From: Escherichia phage UoN_LG358_1 | Sequence record: OK570374 | Length of the DNA: 64,000 bases | Reading direction: 5' to 3' (one strand) | Shown here: positions 28,305 to 50,524 of the stretch, piece after piece | Layout: each line of letters starts with the position of its first letter | Numbering within the stretch: position 1 is the stretch's first letter | Program-made: the position numbers and the translations under genes | Notes under the pieces: model-generated | The model's input: the letters and a program-made list of their open reading frames with translations, nothing else | Database searches by the model: none | Told to the model about the DNA's origin: nothing

Positions 28305-28445
28305 TTAAAGCGATTTAACTTTTATTACGCACTTAATTGGTGAGTTGACCATAGATTTTCGGGGTTTAGCCATTTTAACCTCAGGTACATCCTCAGTTCT
28401 TTTAATCCAACTTTTGTATGGACAGTATTTTTCTTTCTTGGTCAT
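28305..28445 (-). CDS. Possible 46-aa basic peptide (weak)
   Basis: Short ORF in the 280-bp uvsX/beta-gt intergenic region; poor SD. Confidence 0.2.
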   Translation of the reverse strand: MTKKEKYCPYKSWIKRTEDVPEVKMAKPRKSMVNSPIKCVIKVKSL

Positions 28446-28512: not shown

Positions 28513-29589
28513 TTACAGGTCAATAGCCTTGCGGAACTCTTCTTGCCAAATTGGTTTTTCATCAAGATATTTTTGAAGAATTTTGTGCTGATATTTCAAA
28601 GTTTCAACACGGAACTCTTCATCTTCTTTAATCTTGTTGATTTTATCTACTAATTCTTGACGATTACTCACATAAAAGAAATCATTACCTTCCATGATAT
28701 TCATGTCAGGGTCAAACGTGCTATCGAAGAATGCCACTGCAGTAGATGCTAGAGCTTCCCATACACGAGGAGTGATTTGGTTGTTATCGTAGGTTTTATC
28801 ACCTAATACAATAGTAGCATACGCGGTTGAGTTGCGTTGAACCATTTCACGAGAGTCTACTTTACCGGGGAATACCGGCGGAGTCGTCCAAGGAAATTCT
28901 GGGTTCTTGAACTGTTCTGCTTTCACTGAACCAAAGAATTCAACATCCAATCCAGTATCAAATAGGTATTCAACCATTTTAGCTTCACGGTTACCAGAAC
29001 GGAAAGTGCCGCCATAAATCAGGTCTCGCATTTTGATGCCATCTGCGGCAATCTTAAAGACACTATGATACATTTTATGACGGTCCAAAGCAAAATGAAC
29101 GAATTCTAGTTTATCGGATAAACATCCAACTAAACGATCAGAATGAATTTTCTTGCATTGCTCTAGATTTCTTCCTTGAGATACAATACGCATTGGAGAT
29201 GTTACAATGAATTGTTCTTCTTTATATTTACTGGACCATTTCTTTTTAGACATCCTTCGCCAAGCTTGCTCAAACGGAAGACGAATATCGGTGAACAAAT
29301 AATAAATTTTTGATTTATACTTATTCATGAACATATAAGCTTCTTTGTTCATCTTATTTTCTTCGCCGCCATAGAAGTTCAGAGCAGCATTAACGACCAA
29401 TAAGCGGTCATACACATTCGGGTCTTTTACTGAATCGAAAGAAATTCCATACTGTGTATTTTTCATTGAAATAAGGTCAACATCAAGACCCATATCTTTT
29501 AAACATTCGGACAAATAAATTGTTTCTGAAGCAGGGGTTGTTTTAAACCCCTGGATGTTATTGCCCATATTAATAATAGCAATTTTCAT
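28513..29589 (-). CDS. DNA beta-glucosyltransferase (hmC-DNA)
   Basis: 358 aa; matches recalled T4 beta-gt (MKIAIINMGNN, KYKSKIYYLFTDIRLPF, YGG.FRSG.RE.KMVE.LFDTGL, FKNP..PWT..PVF.GK, AFKKAIDL-type C-terminus). Confidence 0.9.
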   Translation of the reverse strand: MKIAIINMGNNIQGFKTTPASETIYLSECLKDMGLDVDLISMKNTQYGISFDSVKDPNVYDRLLVVNAALNFYGGEENKMNKEAYMFMNKYKSKIYYLFTDIRLPFEQAWRRMSKKKWSSKYKEEQFIVTSPMRIVSQGRNLEQCKKIHSDRLVGCLSDKLEFVHFALDRHKMYHSVFKIAADGIKMRDLIYGGTFRSGNREAKMVEYLFDTGLDVEFFGSVKAEQFKNPEFPWTTPPVFPGKVDSREMVQRNSTAYATIVLGDKTYDNNQITPRVWEALASTAVAFFDSTFDPDMNIMEGNDFFYVSNRQELVDKINKIKEDEEFRVETLKYQHKILQKYLDEKPIWQEEFRKAIDL

Positions 29590-30422
29590 AGTGTCGGTTC
29601 AATCTCGCTAAATTTATGAAAAGCATCTGACTTCTGCTTTTTAGCAACACACATACGAAGTACTTTCAAAGGTTCATCAGTACCAAACATAGTTTTGGTT
29701 GGGTCACCTTCTGATTTCCACCGAGCTTGAGTTGGGAAGTCAGCATGAATTTTTTCCAGCGCTCTGTTCTGTTTAGCAGCATTACGCATAGATGATACAC
29801 CGCCTGGAGCTTGTCCTTTACCTGATTTAACGAGATATTTAAAAATCGCCAAATGAGGATAACCCATATTAATGAGTTTAAGAAACGCGTATGTATCTTC
29901 GGATAGGTCTACTATACCATATCCAATGTCATCGGCAGAAAGTTTGCTTAAATCATAAAAAGTATTTGTAAACCCGTAAGAGTTCTCACGGAAATGACCC
30001 CATTTAGAGTCAATCTTGAATATTGGCAAGCGAGCGTGACCATGATAAAAGCCGCAGTCCATCGCTGTTTCAACATAAAGACAAAGATTATTAAATTCAT
30101 CCCAGGTCATTCCAACATCATGGAGAATGCGCCGGTCATCTTTTTCGCGAATTTCCGTTGTATGAATAGTAGTATCATCATCCAACATCCAAATTCGTTG
30201 TCCTTGATACATTTCGGTGATTAAACGACGAGTACCAGCAATCCCATTTACATCATCCGGGATAGTTACTATTTTAGCAATTGTGCTATATCGAGTTTCG
30301 TATTCTTCTTTTTGAGACTCGCGAACTACAAGATGAGCGACATAACCTTCAGGGAACATGTCTAGGGCAGTAACTGCCCCGGCACGATTATAACTTGGAA
30401 TTACAAATTGAATCATTTCCAA
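29586..30422 (-). CDS. Putative nucleotide-sugar glycosyltransferase (GT-A-like motifs); candidate second DNA sugar transferase
   Basis: 278 aa; N-terminal FVIPSYNRAGA and WMLDDDT (DxD-like) motifs; translationally coupled between gene 42 (10-nt overlap) and beta-gt (ATGA overlap). Function inferred from motifs only. Confidence 0.4.
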   Translation of the reverse strand: MEMIQFVIPSYNRAGAVTALDMFPEGYVAHLVVRESQKEEYETRYSTIAKIVTIPDDVNGIAGTRRLITEMYQGQRIWMLDDDTTIHTTEIREKDDRRILHDVGMTWDEFNNLCLYVETAMDCGFYHGHARLPIFKIDSKWGHFRENSYGFTNTFYDLSKLSADDIGYGIVDLSEDTYAFLKLINMGYPHLAIFKYLVKSGKGQAPGGVSSMRNAAKQNRALEKIHADFPTQARWKSEGDPTKTMFGTDEPLKVLRMCVAKKQKSDAFHKFSEIEPTL

Positions 30423-31150
30423 TAACCTTTGTAATCTTTCTTTGGTATATGAGTTTCACCAGTGTGATAAAAATGGTCAACTAGATAAAATTGATTTTCA
30501 TATACATGGAGGCTTCCGGCGTTCCAAATAATGTCACCAACTACATATTTTTTATCGCGACCGCAGTTAAGTGTCTGTACTAATAATTCTAATACATGTT
30601 TTTGCCAAGCATAGTCATTACGATAACCTGCCCAGCAATCGTTGCTTCTCATACTCACAACAGCATGAACTTGCTCATCGCGAATTAAGTATTGAACCGT
30701 GTTTGTACACATGAAATCACTCATACCGTCACGGTTATAATCAGTCTGCATACTTGGACGAGTATAAATCATAATTCCACGGCGAGAATCTGGATTGACA
30801 CTCAGTTCAGCCGCACAACTTGCAAATTGGCTATAATTATCTTTATTCCAAATCGCCCATCCGTAGTTTGAGTTAATCTCGCCGTTTTTGGATGAAATCT
30901 GGTCCCAAATTGCTGGAGTTTTTCCTGGAATGTCTTTAACGAATAAACTTTGAGACTTATACCATTCTAATTCGCGGGCTACATACTCATCATTAACTGA
31001 ACCAAAAATAAGTTCTTCATCTGCAACAAAAGACGCGCCGATAATTTCAATAGTTTTTACGCCAGTTTTGTCAATAACAAACTCTTCATTTTCGAGAGCT
31101 ACAGCAAATTCCTGACGAATGTCTTGTACTGTCAAAGGTGTGATAATCAT
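30413..31150 (-). CDS. 42: dCMP hydroxymethylase gp42
   Basis: 245 aa; matches recalled T4 gp42 (VDKTGVKTIEIIGASFVADE, LEWYKS.SLFVKDIPG, NPDSRRGIMIYTRPSMQ, DGMSDFMCTNTVQYLIRD). Confidence 0.9.
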   Translation of the reverse strand: MIITPLTVQDIRQEFAVALENEEFVIDKTGVKTIEIIGASFVADEELIFGSVNDEYVARELEWYKSQSLFVKDIPGKTPAIWDQISSKNGEINSNYGWAIWNKDNYSQFASCAAELSVNPDSRRGIMIYTRPSMQTDYNRDGMSDFMCTNTVQYLIRDEQVHAVVSMRSNDCWAGYRNDYAWQKHVLELLVQTLNCGRDKKYVVGDIIWNAGSLHVYENQFYLVDHFYHTGETHIPKKDYKGYWK

Positions 31151-31395
31151 TTTGCCTCTTTAATTACGATAATTTGTTGAGGTTGGTTATTTTTTCGCTC
31201 GGCGACGAATGCCCAAATTAAAGCAACCAACCATCCAATGAAAGTCCAACCAAAAATAAGATTTAAAAAGAAAATTCCAACATTAGATTTTGTCCCACGA
31301 AGAAGAGCAATAATCCACGGAAGAAAATACGCTAAAAACGCTAAGAACAATGAACCAAAACCAAGTGCCGCTGTACCCAATACGATAGTTTCCAT
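31147..31395 (-). CDS. imm: Superinfection immunity membrane protein (Imm-like)
   Basis: 82 aa from METIVLG (GAGGAA SD); two TM segments; T4 imm position and size. Confidence 0.6.
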   Translation of the reverse strand: METIVLGTAALGFGSLFLAFLAYFLPWIIALLRGTKSNVGIFFLNLIFGWTFIGWLVALIWAFVAERKNNQPQQIIVIKEAK

Positions 31396-31423
31396 TATAA
31401 TTTCCTCTATTTTATCAAATGAT

Positions 31424-31870
31424 TTATTTAGCATTTTTAGCCATACATTTATTAAAAGCTTTCACTTTTCCGCCTGAACGATAATGAATAACTGCCAGAC
31501 GAGTTTTATTATTTGGATTTTTGAAGTATTGTTCACGAAGAACTTCTTCATGAGCTTCTACCACAAATTCACACATTCTGATAGCTTTTTCCTTTTTATC
31601 GAGTGCAGCTTGACGTTCATCACCTTCAGCTACTGATTTTTTAATTGCAGCTTCAAGCGGACTATTCGCGCGCCGTTCTTCAATTTCTTTAATAGCGTTA
31701 AGAGTTTCCTGCGAGACTTGAGAAGTTGCACGAGTATAAACCATCCCAGAAGCTGGTTTGTAAACCAAATTACCTTCACTTCCATAATGTGGTTGCGAAT
31801 AAGGTTGAATAGAACAACCTGCTAAAGTAGTTGCTGCTAGAACAATCAGTGATTTCAAATTAAATTTCAT
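31424..31870 (-). CDS. Lipoprotein (signal peptide with LAGC lipobox)
   Basis: 149 aa from MKFNLKSLIVLAATTLAGCS; GAGGAA SD; the track N-terminus is promoter read-through. Confidence 0.6.
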   Translation of the reverse strand: MKFNLKSLIVLAATTLAGCSIQPYSQPHYGSEGNLVYKPASGMVYTRATSQVSQETLNAIKEIEERRANSPLEAAIKKSVAEGDERQAALDKKEKAIRMCEFVVEAHEEVLREQYFKNPNNKTRLAVIHYRSGGKVKAFNKCMAKNAK

Positions 31871-31889
31871 TTTATTTTCCTCATTTGTT

Positions 31890-31931
31890 TTGATGAGATA
31901 ATAGTAACACATCCTTCCATGGATGTAAACG
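31890..31931 (-). promoter_or_regulatory. T4-type early promoter (cassette family A)
   Basis: gtaaac at 31925-31930, TGTTACTAT -10; block identical to 6335-6390. Confidence 0.55.
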
Positions 31932-38018: not shown

Positions 38019-39700
38019 TTTTCCATTACCGTGAATCTGCCAACTTTCTTCATCTGAAGATGTTGCCCATAATCCTGCGGGTCATGGTCTTTATGGCTTA
38101 TGATAAAGATATTACTATCAGTCATTCCATTGAGAATTGTTCCTACTCGCTTAATACCTTCATTATCAAACGCGCCATCATAAACTTCATCAAGAAAGAG
38201 ACAGTTAATTTTAACATTAGAAACTTTTTCAGCAATGTCTCGCCACGTGAACAGCAACGCAATATCAATACGAGCTTTTTCGCCTTGGCTGAATGACGCA
38301 TAACTGAATTCTTCGCGCCCGCGAGATTTAATAGTTTCGGTGAATTCTTCGTTCAAAGTAAAGACATAATCAGCTTCCATAATTTTAAGATACTGATTAA
38401 TCTGTTTGTTGAACATCGGAATATATTTGCTAATAATAGCTCCCTTGATACCCGAATCTTTCAGCATTTCAGTTAAAATGCCTCGATGATATTTTTCCAT
38501 AACCATATTGGATTTGGTATCAACTATTTTATTCAATTCTTCGTTAAGCGTTTTAATCTCATCGGCATGATTGATGAATTCTTTTGATGCTTTTTCAATC
38601 GCCGCTTTTACTTTTTTAGCCTTTTCTACTGTTGAAATTAAAGTTTGCTTTTTAGATTTTATGTCTTGAGCAAGTTCACGTTGCGTTCTAACGTTGCTCT
38701 CATATTCATGCACTAGTGTCTCTAGATTGGCTCTATGACTTTCTAACGACTCTGATTTATGTTTACATTCATTAATCTTATCGTTAATCTGAGTGACTAG
38801 AGATGACCCAGAGTCTAATTGTTGCATGCATGTTGGGCATGAACCTCCAGAATGATACAAAGAAACAACCTTGTTATATGAGTCAATTTTAGACTTAATC
38901 AACAGAGTTTGATTACCAATTTCAGTAAACGCGGACCGAGGGTCTTCATCAAGCACGATAGATGTTAAACGCTCAGTTGCTTTTTCAATTTCGGATTTGA
39001 TAGAACGTGCTTCAGTCGCAAGTTCATCATACATGGTCTGAAAACGAGCTATATTTTCTCCTGATAGCTTTTTCTGGCGTTCAACGTTCTCTTCATAAAT
39101 TTTAATCTGTTGGATAATTCCGTCTTTCTTTGCGTCCAACACAGAGACTTGTGAATTAATTTCTCTTATATGAGATTTATTCAATTTATCCATTTCAGCT
39201 AATGTAGAAACTTCGAGCAAGTCTTCTACTAACTTCCGCCGAGCTGGAGTACTCAAACCCATGAACGGTGTATAACCAGCTGTACCAAGCACAACTACTT
39301 GCTTAAAGCTGGAATAAGACATTTTGATAAGTTCTTCAAAATAGCTTTGAAAATCTTTAACAGAAGCTGCCTCGTCCAGGCGAACTCCGTCTCGAGTTAT
39401 TTCAAAGATATTCGGCTTTTGACCGCGCTTTATATAAAAATGCTTACCGTCATACTCCATCCAAAGCTCTACTAACATATCTTTTTTATTAATAGAGTTT
39501 ACTAGTTGTCCTTTCTTAATATCACGGAACGGTTTGCCAAATAAAGCAAATGTAATAGCTTCCAGCATGGTACTCTTACCACCACCATTTTTGCCGGTGA
39601 TGAGAGTTTTTTGTACCTTATCAAGTTGAATATCAATTGGAACTTGTCCAACAGACATTATATTAGAATATTTTACTCTATTAAGTTTAAAGGTTTTCAT
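38015..39700 (-). CDS. 46: Recombination nuclease subunit gp46 (Rad50/SbcC-like ATPase)
   Basis: 561 aa; Walker A GKNGGGKST; near-colinear with recalled T4 gp46; C-terminus QHLQMKKVGRFTVM. Confidence 0.9.
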   Translation of the reverse strand: MKTFKLNRVKYSNIMSVGQVPIDIQLDKVQKTLITGKNGGGKSTMLEAITFALFGKPFRDIKKGQLVNSINKKDMLVELWMEYDGKHFYIKRGQKPNIFEITRDGVRLDEAASVKDFQSYFEELIKMSYSSFKQVVVLGTAGYTPFMGLSTPARRKLVEDLLEVSTLAEMDKLNKSHIREINSQVSVLDAKKDGIIQQIKIYEENVERQKKLSGENIARFQTMYDELATEARSIKSEIEKATERLTSIVLDEDPRSAFTEIGNQTLLIKSKIDSYNKVVSLYHSGGSCPTCMQQLDSGSSLVTQINDKINECKHKSESLESHRANLETLVHEYESNVRTQRELAQDIKSKKQTLISTVEKAKKVKAAIEKASKEFINHADEIKTLNEELNKIVDTKSNMVMEKYHRGILTEMLKDSGIKGAIISKYIPMFNKQINQYLKIMEADYVFTLNEEFTETIKSRGREEFSYASFSQGEKARIDIALLFTWRDIAEKVSNVKINCLFLDEVYDGAFDNEGIKRVGTILNGMTDSNIFIISHKDHDPQDYGQHLQMKKVGRFTVMEK

Positions 39701-40529
39701 TTAATATCCGTCTGTCAAATTCGGCTACTATAGCTTGTAAAGAACTTGTTATGGGATGCCCGAGTTTAATAAGTTCTTTTGAAAATGTAGAATATCTAGG
39801 TTTATTCATTTTAATCCACTCTGTATAAAGCAAATCAAAATTTTGCCATTGATACGATTTTCTTCTGGATTTTAAATGAGCCTCTCTAATTTCGTCATTC
39901 TTCCAACTTTGAGAAACTCCCAATGATAAAGATTTACGATAATCTAAATTTTTAGATGAGAGTCTAGTTGCATTTAAATGCTTAATTTTATTTTCTGGAT
40001 TTTCAAACCACTCTTTAGTTTTCTTAGATACTAAAGACTTAAATTCATTTGAATTTACTCGTTCCAGGTGAATTTTTAAATTATCGGAATTTTCAAACCA
40101 TCGTTTGACTGCTTGGCTAATTTTTATTCTGTTTTCTGCTATTGAATAATAACTGGACATTTTGATTGAAATAGCCTTTGAAATTTCAGTAGAAACTTTT
40201 GAATATATTTTAGCCATTTCTTCAAATTCTTCAAAACTACATTTATAAGCAGTTTTGCTATTATTCATTCTATTAATAGCTTGCAACATTCTATAATCTT
40301 TAGTTTCAGACAATATAGCATGTGCAATAAAATGGTTATAATGTGTTAAATGCACAATATTTGACGGGTCTTTAGCATATTCTGGAAAAATGGACTTTGG
40401 TAAAATATGATGAGCTTGAGTATGTCCTTTGTTTAACTTGGTTGAATTAGTTTTAATAAATTCTACATACTTATTAACGCCTTCCCATTGAGGGAAGGCT
40501 GCTTTTAATATAGTCTCAGCGTCAATCAT
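39687..40529 (-). CDS. Free-standing HNH homing endonuclease between genes 47 and 46
   Basis: 280 aa; HHILPKSIFPEYAKDPSNIVHLTHYNHFIAH HNH motif; basic repeat-rich C-terminal half; overlaps both neighbours. Confidence 0.8.
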   Translation of the reverse strand: MIDAETILKAAFPQWEGVNKYVEFIKTNSTKLNKGHTQAHHILPKSIFPEYAKDPSNIVHLTHYNHFIAHAILSETKDYRMLQAINRMNNSKTAYKCSFEEFEEMAKIYSKVSTEISKAISIKMSSYYSIAENRIKISQAVKRWFENSDNLKIHLERVNSNEFKSLVSKKTKEWFENPENKIKHLNATRLSSKNLDYRKSLSLGVSQSWKNDEIREAHLKSRRKSYQWQNFDLLYTEWIKMNKPRYSTFSKELIKLGHPITSSLQAIVAEFDRRILNENL

Positions 40530-41548
40530 TGATTTTGGACCTCGATATAAAGTTGATTAGCATATTTTATAACTGCTTTCCTGTCATCGTTGGATAAATC
40601 AGGTAAAGAGTTAATATATTCTTCCATAAGTTCAAGTAAGCTTTTAACTTCTACTTCAGCTTCTTCATCAACTTCAAGAGAATTATCAATCTTTGAAACG
40701 GTACGAAGCTCATGAACAACTTTTTCGAGTTCGCTTTCAAATTTTGGAAGGTCTTTATCAACTTCTGTAATAATGACACGAACTGAAATATTTTTGTAAC
40801 GATTAATATCAAATTTACCCTTAAATGGATAAATTATTTTTTGATGCCAACATGTTTCGTTTTCGATAAAATCAAAACTGTCATCTTGAGTGTCCTGTAT
40901 CCAAAAACCTCGCGGGTCATTTTCGTCTCCCGCAGTAAGTGTCCATGGTGTGCCAATATATTTGACATTAGCGGCACTAGAGATAGTATGGAAGTGTCCA
41001 GAACGAACATGTTTATATTTTTTAAGGAAATCAGGTTCCAACCCGTGGGATTTTAATCCTTTGTAGTAATAAAAACCACTTAATTCCCAATGACCAATGC
41101 AAATATCAGCATCAGATGTTTTGATGTGATTCATTATATCGGACGCGTTCTCTTCGCACATCCACGGAATCATATCAATCAAACAACCATCAAAATCTAC
41201 AGTTTCAGGAATATCATGAATTATGATATGGTCATATTTACCGAGAATCTCAGTAATCGCGTTAGGGCGAAGTGTGTTCTTATAATGCATGTCATGATTA
41301 CCAATTATGGTATGCATCGTAATACCAGCTTCATCCAATAGCGTTGCTATCTCACGGGCAAATTCCATAGTCTTATGAGTGATAGCTTTACGAACGTCAA
41401 AGATGTCGCCGTACTGAACCCATGTAGTTATGCCATGCTTTTTAGAATATTCAATCTTTTGACGTATTCCATCTCGCTGGATATTCTGAAGCCAAGGGTC
41501 ATCGCCCTTAACTCCTAAATGCCAATCACCTGTGTGAAGAATTTTCAT
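40526..41548 (-). CDS. 47: Recombination nuclease subunit gp47 (Mre11/SbcD-like)
   Basis: 340 aa; phosphoesterase motifs GDWHLG, GDIFD, GNHD, GHWE, GHFH; near-colinear with recalled T4 gp47. Confidence 0.9.
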   Translation of the reverse strand: MKILHTGDWHLGVKGDDPWLQNIQRDGIRQKIEYSKKHGITTWVQYGDIFDVRKAITHKTMEFAREIATLLDEAGITMHTIIGNHDMHYKNTLRPNAITEILGKYDHIIIHDIPETVDFDGCLIDMIPWMCEENASDIMNHIKTSDADICIGHWELSGFYYYKGLKSHGLEPDFLKKYKHVRSGHFHTISSAANVKYIGTPWTLTAGDENDPRGFWIQDTQDDSFDFIENETCWHQKIIYPFKGKFDINRYKNISVRVIITEVDKDLPKFESELEKVVHELRTVSKIDNSLEVDEEAEVEVKSLLELMEEYINSLPDLSNDDRKAVIKYANQLYIEVQNQ

Positions 41549-41688
41549 ATATCAAGCGCCGTCATAGCTGAGAGAATTAATATCATAGAAATGAACCCAT
41601 CTGGTGTAGAAAAGAATCCAACCCAACAAGCTCGGCCAAATAAGTATAATCCTGCCAATAGGCTAAGTATGCCTAAGTAAGTAATCAT
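41545..41688 (-). CDS. Putative 47-aa membrane peptide (not in ORF track)
   Basis: MITYLGILSLLAGLYLFGRACWVGFFSTPDGFISMILILSAMTALDI; stop overlaps the gene 47 ATG. Confidence 0.3.
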   Translation of the reverse strand: MITYLGILSLLAGLYLFGRACWVGFFSTPDGFISMILILSAMTALDI

Positions 41689-41760
41689 CTTTTCACCCCA
41701 AATATATTTTTAACATGTACAAAAATGATAATTAATTATATCAAATGTATAAAAAGCAAA

Positions 41761-42090
41761 TTAATACGCGCACAATATTTTTGAAACGTTTGACTGGTTA
41801 ATTTTGTGAATAAACTCACATTTTTCTTCTGGCGATAATTCGTGATTTCTGATGAGTGTCGCACAAGGATATTTTGGTGGATAATCTTTCTTTAAAACTA
41901 AAAGCAACTCATCCAAATATCCGCAACTATCATAAGCATGCCGAAGTTTAACAATATCAACATGCTTAATGCGTTCAAAATCTTTAGAGCTTTGTACTGT
42001 ACTTCGCCAATGCACTTCATTATCTTTAGTCGTTGGAGAAATATAAACTGCAACTCTTAGTTCAGTGTCATTTAATTTAATTTTTTCCAT
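41761..42090 (-). CDS. Hypothetical protein
   Basis: 109 aa from ATG at 42090 (GAGGT SD); track start is TTG. Confidence 0.45.
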   Translation of the reverse strand: MEKIKLNDTELRVAVYISPTTKDNEVHWRSTVQSSKDFERIKHVDIVKLRHAYDSCGYLDELLLVLKKDYPPKYPCATLIRNHELSPEEKCEFIHKINQSNVSKILCAY

Positions 42091-42103
42091 TATTACCTCA
42101 AAG

Positions 42104-42128
42104 AACAAAGGGAGCCTCGGCTCCCTTA
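42104..42128 (-). terminator. Possible terminator hairpin
   Basis: GGGAGCC..GGCTCCC stem with T-rich tail on the minus strand. Confidence 0.35.
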
Positions 42129-42262
42129 AATTTTACGATATGTTATAGTATTTTCGGCTTTTGCTTTATCGTGTAATAGTTTGAATTGTGACATCATTTC
42201 AGACATGCTGTTATGTATTTTTGTATAATCAACAGTCTTCTTTGGAGTTTCTGCCACGATTT

Positions 42263-42475
42263 TTACCATTTCCACCACCGTTTAACTTGAAAAGTATCAG
42301 CCCAAACTAATGTTTTTTCATCTATAGCAATCTCTGAACTTTTAGTTACACCATACGGACCAAGAATTTTGTATGTGTTTTTAGAAGTTTTTAGAGCCAT
42401 TGTTCCATTAACCATAGATAGAGTGAAACAGGCATTAACTTTAAGACGTTTGAATTTAACCTTTACTATTGCCAT
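42263..42475 (-). CDS. Hypothetical small protein
   Basis: 70-aa ORF. Confidence 0.4.
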   Translation of the reverse strand: MAIVKVKFKRLKVNACFTLSMVNGTMALKTSKNTYKILGPYGVTKSSEIAIDEKTLVWADTFQVKRWWKW

Positions 42476-42788
42476 TTACAATTTCCCAAATCTGTCGACG
42501 AGTGGTTTCCCACTGTACTTTGACAAGTTCATCTGTATAAGGTTGGCGTAAAATGTCCCGAGATTTCTCGATAGCATATTTGTACGCCGCGAAGTTATTT
42601 TCTACTACTACTGCTCTTTGTGCATGCTCATTTAAACGTTTAAGTTCTTTTGCATGCTTTTTATAAATTTTCGCTGCTTTAGCGTTAGCTTCTTGACGTG
42701 TTGCTTCTTCCATTCGAGCGATAATTTGTTCTACTTCTTCTGGGTTTTCATCAATTTTATTGATATTATCAATAATCTCTGGAGACAT
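42456..42788 (-). CDS. Hypothetical protein
   Basis: 110-aa ORF, coiled-coil-like. Confidence 0.45.
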   Translation of the reverse strand: MSPEIIDNINKIDENPEEVEQIIARMEEATRQEANAKAAKIYKKHAKELKRLNEHAQRAVVVENNFAAYKYAIEKSRDILRQPYTDELVKVQWETTRRQIWEIVNGNSKG

Positions 42789-42797
42789 TTAATTACC

Positions 42798-43052
42798 TTA
42801 TTTTGGAAAATAATCCAATGAAAAATAAAATCCGTCAGGAGATACAACATACTGATGAGGAACTTCTTTTCCATCAACAATAAATGTAATATCATGCGGA
42901 TTAGTTGGGTCAATATGAATATCCATTTCGAGAACTTCCCTTAAATACATTTTTAGTATATAAGGAATAGCTTCTAATTCTGGAATATCTTCAAGCATTC
43001 CTGCGAGGTCAATCTTCAGCCTCATATAAAAAATCCAAATTCGGAGAATCAT
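42798..43052 (-). CDS. Hypothetical protein
   Basis: 84-aa ORF overlapping the gene 55 end. Confidence 0.4.
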
Positions 43053-43548
43053 CTATTTCAACACTCTTTTTGTCAGACCCTGGTGCTTTGTAGGTAGATT
43101 CTTCATAATGCGTCATTTTATCGTAGATGTCCTGAATGAACGTTTCATCTGCTAACGCGACCATATCATCGTCACGACTGTCATAGACATTGTGAACAAA
43201 ATAGCTATATTTCTTTGCCATCTCTTTGCGTTCTTTTTTGATACGCTGAACGAAAGCATTAAAACAAGCCTGAGTTATGTATGCATGTGGGTTTTTGTAT
43301 TTCTCTTCGTCAAAGTTTTTGAGACCTTTAATAGCAGCCTCAACTCCATCAGAAATCATTTCATCTTTCCATGATTGGGTGTATCCTGAAAAGTTAAAAC
43401 GCTTTGACAATCCCTCGGAAATAAGCATAATAGCTTTTCCAATAGTGTCATTCTGACGAACAAGCGTTCCTTCTGGCGCTTCTCTACATTTTTGTTTCCA
43501 TTCACATATTGCGTTGTAAAGCTCTTTGTTGTTTACATAGTCAGCCAT
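43009..43548 (-). CDS. 55: Late-transcription sigma factor gp55
   Basis: 179 aa; matches recalled T4 gp55 ([70 protein letters not shown]). Confidence 0.9.
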
Positions 43549-49932: not shown

Positions 49933-50097
49933 TCAATTATATAGCCAATATGTCCTTGCCCATTTCTTACGGTTTCGGATTTGAGTTTTAGTCGGCTTAG
50001 TAGAGAACCACCAGGAAATTTTATATCCATCGTCAAAATCAAAAATTAGATGCCATTTAGACATCTGATTTGATACATACTTTAATTCAGTTTTCAT
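49933..50097 (-). CDS. Possible 54-aa protein (weak)
   Basis: Short ORF with Trp-rich C-terminus; no clear SD. Confidence 0.25.
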   Translation of the reverse strand: MKTELKYVSNQMSKWHLIFDFDDGYKISWWFSTKPTKTQIRNRKKWARTYWLYN

Positions 50098-50104
50098 TTA
50101 AATA

Positions 50105-50524
50105 CTAGCTGGAAAAAGATAGCTGTTTTTCTAGAGCTCGAATATAATCCGCTGCTGCTTGCATTATATTAGCTTCATACCCATTAACACGGATTTTCGC
50201 GGCTTCAAGATGGTCTGTTATTGGTTGTCCGTCGTCAAAAAATCCTAAAGTAACCGCTGGAAATAAATCAGAATCATATTCTTCGATTTCTTTAAGTTGA
50301 TACATACCGTCTTCACAGTAAAAACACCAGAACCAACTATCGCGAGCGTTAATATGAAGATAAGGGCCGTTTTTAATTTTGACAGAAGTGATACCGTCTT
50401 CATGGCCGTTTTCTTTGTCAACAGTAATAACTTTAAAAACAGTTCCGACTTTCATTTCAGGAAATTGTTCCAGAAGTTCTTCATCGTCTTCAATAATTTC
50501 AAAAACTTTATTCACTAAACTCAT
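50105..50524 (-). CDS. Hypothetical acidic protein
   Basis: 139 aa from ATG at 50524 (1 nt after the upstream stop); track start is TTG. Confidence 0.45.
   Translation of the reverse strand: MSLVNKVFEIIEDDEELLEQFPEMKVGTVFKVITVDKENGHEDGITSVKIKNGPYLHINARDSWFWCFYCEDGMYQLKEIEEYDSDLFPAVTLGFFDDGQPITDHLEAAKIRVNGYEANIMQAAADYIRALEKQLSFSS

Follow-up and report, generated by a model that had tools for sequence, protein, structure and literature searches.

The type of sugar attached to 5-hydroxymethylcytosine (hmC) in the DNA of a T4-like phage decides which host defenses are escaped and which are triggered, among them McrBC and GmrSD/BrxU (type IV restriction), Brig1 and Brig3 (DNA glycosylases), BapA (a glucosyl hydrolase), and CRISPR effectors (PMC13390438, PMC13216743, PMC13160076). 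T6-like phages with an alpha-glucosyltransferase (alpha-gt) as well as a TET-associated glycosyltransferase (TAGT) have alpha-gentiobiosyl-hmC, as determined by high-performance liquid chromatography and mass spectrometry (PMC13390438), and deletion of the T6 TAGT gene changes gentiobiosyl-hmC DNA to alpha-glucosyl-hmC DNA (PMC13160076). Another combination, beta-glucosyltransferase (beta-gt) and TAGT without alpha-gt, was tabulated by Thomas et al. (2018, Table 1) for Salmonella phage STP4-a, which lacks alpha-gt but has homologues of beta-gt (YP_009126243.1, 50%) and of T2 ba-gt (YP_009126244.1, 64%), with the same pattern for phages S16, STML-198, CC31, PG7, Moon, Merlin, and PS2 (PMC6024577). 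It was taken up again in 2026 (PMC13216743). The subject here is a locus of this kind in Escherichia phage UoN_LG358_1 (record OK570374), where a TAGT gene lies between gene 42, for deoxycytidine monophosphate (dCMP) hydroxymethylase, and beta-gt. The stretch analyzed, 64,000 nt, is referred to as the window, and positions are counted from its first nucleotide.

Databases and literature already contain the gene under its name, its class of fold, and, for the STP4-a lineage, the pairing with beta-gt. Added here are the observations that relatedness among TAGTs is not sorted by partner enzyme, that selection on the gene is strongly purifying in lineages with beta-gt only, and that the tandem occurs in deep T4-like lineages.

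An orthologue of the T2/T6 enzyme

The features of the TAGT open reading frame (ORF) are as follows, with lengths in amino acids (aa).

29586–30416, minus strand: TAGT-family DNA glycosyltransferase, 276 aa, orthologue of the T2/T6 beta-glucosyl-HMC-alpha-glucosyltransferase; the same as STP4a_036 / YP_009126244.1
30417–30422, minus strand: alternative upstream TTG start, giving 278 aa and a 10-nt overlap; probably unused
30375–30407, minus strand: FVIPSYNRAGA, N-terminal; strand beta-1 and a loop with the near-invariant P7 and R11; GT-A nucleotide-binding region
30174–30182, minus strand: DDD (D79-D80-D81), DxD metal/nucleotide-sugar motif, directly after strand 74–78
29895–29897, minus strand: D174, invariant, at the start of helix 173–183; candidate catalytic base, by comparison with the matched GT2-type structures

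The encoded protein almost certainly has a GT-A fold and is orthologous to the T2/T6 enzyme. It is 64.1% identical to the T2 enzyme over 276 aa (99% of length, E 8e-137) and 72% identical to its homologue in Jiaodavirus (Klebsiella phages); it matches PHROG 842 (beta-glucosyl-HMC-alpha-glucosyltransferase) over residues 1–272 of 276 (E 1.1e-81), and Pfam TAGT (PF20691) with 29.4 bits against a gathering cut-off of 27.5 (E 9.4e-7). The PF20691 assignment is also precomputed for homologues P0002–P0012. Among 1.8 billion representative proteins 223 relatives were found, and tblastn found homologues in 688 phage records; these records, together with an omega of 0.039 relative to CC31, show this to be no chance ORF. 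With T4 alpha-gt and beta-gt as tblastn queries there was no match to the TAGT ORF; NCBIfam has no model matching TAGT or beta-gt; and a sequence search of the PDB found no solved relative, the best hit (E 0.63) being an unrelated designed protein.

Over 2.9 kb around the ORF, identity is 100% to STP4-a and 98% to S16, both of the genus Gelderlandvirus (Straboviridae); the STP4-a counterpart is annotated as a beta-glucosyl-HMC-alpha-glucosyltransferase (STP4a_036, YP_009126244.1). An earlier reading of the sequence without database searches (the sequence-only reading) had named the T2/T6 beta-glucosyl-HMC-alpha-glucosyltransferase for comparison, and it is of exactly this enzyme that the protein proves to be an orthologue, by T2 identity, PHROG 842, and Pfam TAGT alike. 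What that reading inferred, a GT-A glycosyltransferase expressed along with the hmC enzymes and perhaps attaching a second sugar, is supported. Its extra, inserted gene is no unrecognized insertion, however: the STP4-a record already annotates it, and Thomas et al. (2018) list it.

On the minus strand the ORF has its stop end at 29586 and two candidate starts, TTG at 30422 (278 aa) and ATG at 30416 (276 aa). The ATG is the better of the two: the homologues in T2, PKO111, G3F8, and an Acinetobacter phage all start MIQ(F/V)VIPSY, the RefSeq annotation of STP4-a is 831 nt long, from the ATG, and AAAGG is found 9 nt upstream of it. The CC31 annotation, unlike that of STP4-a, takes the TTG. The ORF of the sequence-only reading is thus real, but its length of 278 aa and its 10-nt overlap with gene 42 both follow from the choice of TTG; from the likelier ATG the length is 276 aa and the overlap 4 nt (ATGA), identical to that in T2, PKO111, and G3F8. 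The 4-nt ATGA overlap between the TAGT stop and the beta-gt start (29586–29589) was read correctly.

Predicted fold and conserved residues

The AlphaFold2 model of the protein has a pLDDT of 94.2 and a pTM of 0.92. Comparison with PDB structures gave 191 matches at E ≤ 1e-3, of which the best listed are mainly GT-A (TM about 0.5, probability 1.00). The top matches are the inverting GT-A enzymes WrtF, RmlT, K4CP, TarP, and TarS (E 1e-7 to 1e-5). The position of D79-D80-D81 next to strand 74–78 is that of the DxD in GT-A enzymes, after the fourth beta strand. In a family alignment of 126 of the 223 relatives D80, D174, and G206 are invariant, and P7, R11, R63, D79, D81, G185, G205, and R211 are conserved in at least 90% of members; since they are conserved across this alignment, IPSYNR and DDD can be considered family signatures. 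The two motifs singled out in the sequence-only reading, FVIPSYNRAGA and WMLDDDT, are both present, and the structure prediction it proposed as a check returned GT-A glycosyltransferases, with DDD conserved. The model suggests a small, single-domain, DxD-containing enzyme of inverting, GT2-like type; an inverting mechanism would fit the beta linkage that the T6 orthologue forms.

Coupling to gene 42 and beta-gt, and absence of alpha-gt

Three further features bear on the substrate of the TAGT.

30413–31150, minus strand: gene 42, dCMP hydroxymethylase; Asp of “MRSND” kept, as in T4
28513–29589, minus strand: beta-glucosyltransferase, 358 aa, with 50% identity to T4 beta-gt; presumably makes the acceptor
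41549–43008, minus strand: interval between genes 47 and 55, the T4 alpha-gt site; here with small ORFs only (≤115 aa) and no alpha-gt

The product of gene 42 (gp42) is 70% identical to T4 gp42. A 5-hydroxy-dCMP synthase of the arabinosyl pathway was considered and ruled out, as those synthases have Asn where the diagnostic Asp is kept here; the expected base is therefore hmC. With a Pfam match at E 2.6e-62, beta-gt is intact. The genes on the minus strand run in the order 43, a 162-aa ORF, imm, 42, the TAGT ORF, beta-gt, a 46-aa ORF, and uvsX. T4 has b-gt directly adjoining 42, with a 23-bp gap between them, as the sequence-only reading had stated. No terminator-like site was found on the minus strand between 42, TAGT, and beta-gt. 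Promoter patterns were of little help: sigma-70-like sites numbered 25 against 24.1 expected from shuffled sequence, which is uninformative on transcription units, and the MotA-box pattern had nine matches against 5.5 expected, none close to the TAGT locus. The three genes are presumably co-expressed from one early mRNA, a reading that draws solely on the overlap of stop and start codons and on the absence of a terminator.

In T4, a 400-aa alpha-gt lies between genes 47 and 55, with small ORFs between a-gt and 55 that resemble those found here, where the interval is flanked by gene 47 at 40526–41548 and gene 55 at 43009–43548. The sequence-only reading had called this locus empty; it has indeed no alpha-gt, the longest ORF being 115 aa, but the small ORFs mean that it is not literally so. 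A T4 alpha-gt query had no match in the window or in two further stretches of STP4-a (record 54000–151500), with a best E of 0.41. The alpha-gt partner that is a feature of the T2/T6 group is lacking, and beta-gt is found instead, a difference in substrate context and not in homology.

Gene order, partner enzymes, and selection

In T2, PKO111, G3F8, and the window phage alike, it is a TAGT gene that lies directly downstream of 42, with the ATGA overlap. Relative to T2, T6, or Jiaodavirus, TAGT is the conserved gene coupled to 42, and beta-gt is the additional one. The TAGT/beta-gt tandem is also found in Karamvirus (CC31), in Muldoonvirus (VP8, where an additional ORF follows 42), and in an Acinetobacter T4-like phage, and its presence in such deep T4-like lineages indicates that it is old. 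The arrangements of T4 and T2 can each be derived from a 42-TAGT-beta-gt-uvsX tandem by one deletion.

Partner enzyme is a poor guide to relatedness among the TAGTs. Jiaodavirus phages carry alpha-gt, yet their TAGT is 72% identical to that of the window and only 64% identical to the alpha-gt-partnered TAGT of T2; TAGT identities run parallel to those of gp42 (77%, 72%, and 71%). Among eight labeled sequences, just two columns separate the TAGTs with beta-gt only from those with alpha-gt, both of them conservative (F142Y and V169I). A division into two specificity classes, for alpha- and beta-linked acceptors, was considered and set aside, the tree being unsorted by partner and the group-specific columns so few, though eight sequences do not amount to proof. 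As far as the alignment goes, it hints weakly that there are no two deeply separate classes.

The TAGT gene is under strong purifying selection within the lineages with beta-gt only, and is not a decaying remnant: relative to CC31 its omega is 0.039 at dS 0.87, lower than for uvsX (0.063), beta-gt (0.067), and gp42 (0.143).

Amino acid identities between CC31 and the window are discordant: 95% for TAGT, 90% for beta-gt, and 91% for uvsX, but only 71% for gp42, which is closer to that of Jiaodavirus (77%). A sharp recombination breakpoint at the 42/TAGT junction was looked for and rejected, as the drop in DNA identity there, from about 90% to about 70%, is gradual; the discordance could stem from an exchange of TAGT and beta-gt as a module, or from gp42 evolving faster.

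A single genome with alpha-gt and beta-gt as well as TAGT is reported in the 2026 NAR survey (PMC13216743). Escherichia phage vB_EcoM-G3F8 (MZ234036.1), a Tequatrovirus, has all three enzymes: alpha-gt at the 47–55 site and, overlapping by 4 nt, a 42-TAGT-beta-gt-like tandem. G3F8 and T2 share 96% identity in TAGT, and the beta-gt-like protein of G3F8 is only 56% identical to T4 beta-gt. The beta-gt-like gene of G3F8 is also found in UPWr_E2, CHD2BS1, and PM136 (45% to the window beta-gt), in two of the three beside a gene annotated as a glucosyl transferase.

Possible products of the TAGT enzyme

A pathway can be proposed for these enzymes, with donor, acceptor anomer, linkage, extent of modification, and biological role all argued from the better-studied relatives. 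Hydroxymethyl-dCMP made by gp42 would be incorporated into DNA, and after replication beta-gt would move glucose from host uridine diphosphate (UDP)-glucose to hmC in beta linkage. The TAGT would then bind metal-UDP-glucose via DDD and, with D174 probably as the base, join a second glucose to the first; if it does so with inversion, the second glucose would be beta-linked. Attachment would probably be at O-6, by analogy to T6, for a product of beta-linked diglucosyl (gentiobiosyl-type) hmC at some fraction of sites. The bulkier sugar would be expected to get in the way of enzymes that recognize or remove the mono-glucosyl form of hmC: type IV restriction enzymes, for example, or DNA glycosylases and glucosyl hydrolases.

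That the window TAGT adds a second sugar to beta-glucosyl-hmC seems somewhat better than an even bet. The more general proposition, that phages with beta-gt and TAGT but no alpha-gt (Gelderlandvirus, Karamvirus, Moonvirus, Muldoonvirus, and some Acinetobacter T4-like phages) have a disaccharide with its first glucose beta-linked to hmC, for example beta-glucosyl-1,6-beta-glucosyl-hmC, we would put at about even; no chemical description of this last compound was found in the literature.

Several points weigh against a second sugar on beta-glucosyl-hmC. The characterized T2 and T6 enzymes use alpha-glucosyl-hmC (PMC13390438, PMC13216743, PMC13160076), and whether TAGT is indifferent to the linkage of its substrate or comes in two kinds is a question posed in the literature (PMC13216743). 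The T2 orthologue modifies only about 5% of hmC (PMC13390438, PMC13160076), so that even an active TAGT may give a minor product. Chemical analyses of the DNA of phages with beta-gt and TAGT (Gelderlandvirus, Karamvirus, Moonvirus, or the S16 group) did not turn up in a literature search. The Pfam TAGT match spans only residues 3–88, the N-terminal third of the protein, and barely exceeds the cut-off; neither the donor sugar nor the linkage position is evident from sequence; and the absence of alpha-gt outside the window takes STP4-a as a proxy for a genome that is a mosaic relative of it.

If the enzyme were strictly specific for alpha-glucosyl-hmC, as the only characterized members would suggest and as its traditional name implies, it would have no acceptor in this DNA, virion DNA would have mono-beta-glucosyl-hmC only, and the gene would be kept for some other reason or be a recent leftover. 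This is unlikely: the catalytic motifs are all intact, purifying selection is strong in lineages with beta-gt only (the omega of 0.039 above), and the tandem is kept in Gelderlandvirus, Karamvirus, Moonvirus, Muldoonvirus, and Acinetobacter phages, unlike a useless remnant.

The second sugar on beta-glucosyl-hmC might also be something other than glucose (for example galactose, N-acetylglucosamine (GlcNAc), or glucuronic acid (GlcUA), from a host UDP-sugar), or be linked otherwise than 1,6. Neither sequence nor fold fixes the donor, and GDP-fucose, TDP-rhamnose, UDP-GlcNAc, and UDP-GlcUA all occur as donors among the enzymes closest in fold in the PDB. The annotated STP4-a genome is, however, devoid of genes for sugar-nucleotide biosynthesis, unlike those of arabinosylating phages (PMC6024577). 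With identities of 64–72% to enzymes using UDP-glucose as well, such a product seems less likely again.

Mutants of T2 and T6 deficient in alpha-gt have non-glucosylated DNA despite keeping the TAGT gene. This tells against the least likely alternative, in which TAGT is a second primary transferase on bare hmC, competing with or complementing beta-gt, as alpha-gt does in T4, to give two kinds of mono-glycosyl-hmC: it is true that 288 of 753 phage genomes with TAGT homologues have neither alpha-gt nor beta-gt, so that some members must use another acceptor, but these solitary TAGTs are described as distant homologues (PMC13216743), and the window protein is a 64–72% identical orthologue of enzymes acting on glucosyl-hmC.

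What remains of modest interest is the sugar chemistry of phages with beta-gt and TAGT. If a beta-anchored disaccharide is indeed made, the anomeric linkage in the acceptor would make no difference to TAGT, which would answer the question posed in PMC13216743, and a distinct sensitivity to GmrSD-type nucleases, Brig-type glycosylases, and glucosyl hydrolases would be predicted.

Other features of the window

The window genome belongs to Gelderlandvirus, the T4-like Salmonella phages around S16 and STP4-a, and is a close mosaic relative of STP4-a, as shown by its 100% identity around the TAGT ORF while the window as a whole matches no single record in the collection; the first 6 kb is only about 93% identical to any known Gelderlandvirus. 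A 280-aa ORF between genes 46 and 47 (39687–40529, minus strand) is absent from STP4-a and S16, and its insertion accounts for a length difference from STP4-a of roughly 625 bp. It has counterparts in phages Melville, CF-SP2, and SEA1, annotated as MobD-like homing endonucleases, and no NCBIfam match. A second indel relative to STP4-a is found at about 50031–50482.

Near the TAGT locus, the 46-aa ORF between beta-gt and uvsX (28305–28445, minus strand) corresponds to hypothetical STP4a_034, and lies in the slot of the homing endonuclease segA in T4. The imm ORF (31147–31434, minus strand) is 95 aa from its first ATG, but only 82 aa in RefSeq STP4-a (31147–31395), so its start is uncertain; the Pfam Imm_superinfect domain covers residues 36–76 of the 95-aa form. 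The 162-aa ORF (31424–31912, minus strand), flanked by imm and gene 43, occupies the place that imm.1 has in T4; its N-terminus resembles a lipoprotein signal (...LAATTLAGCS), and it has no significant Pfam or NCBIfam match.

Comparison with known systems

With the T4 enzymes alpha-gt and beta-gt (GT72 and GT63), the TAGT shares a pathway, the one by which hmC in DNA is glucosylated from UDP-glucose; it differs in having a GT-A instead of a GT-B fold, in its lack of sequence similarity to them, and in its substrate, theirs being hmC itself and not an attached sugar. Its Pfam family, PF20691, is that of the TET-associated glycosyltransferases, with a GT-A fold and in a sister position to CAZy GT2, here matched over residues 3–88 only; unlike the setting of that family, hmC in T4-like phages is made before replication by gp42 and not by a TET/JBP dioxygenase.

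The closest counterparts are STP4-a gp036, which is identical, and the homologues in S16, CC31, Moon, and Merlin (92–99% identity), alike in name and in the order 42-TAGT-beta-gt-uvsX. From these Gelderlandvirus, Karamvirus, and Moonvirus proteins there is no difference of substance, although the window genome departs from STP4-a elsewhere. Relative to the T2/T6 ba-gt and g-gt (UniProt Q06717 and Q06718), the protein is a full-length orthologue (276 vs. 280 aa) with the DxD and the family-invariant residues in common, and its gene has the same place as T2/T6 ba-gt, immediately downstream of gene 42 with a 4-nt ATGA overlap. The partner enzyme is what differs: T2 and T6 have alpha-gt and no beta-gt, and the acceptor there is alpha-glucosyl-hmC, whereas beta-gt is the only possible primary enzyme here, and the acceptor would therefore be the beta anomer.

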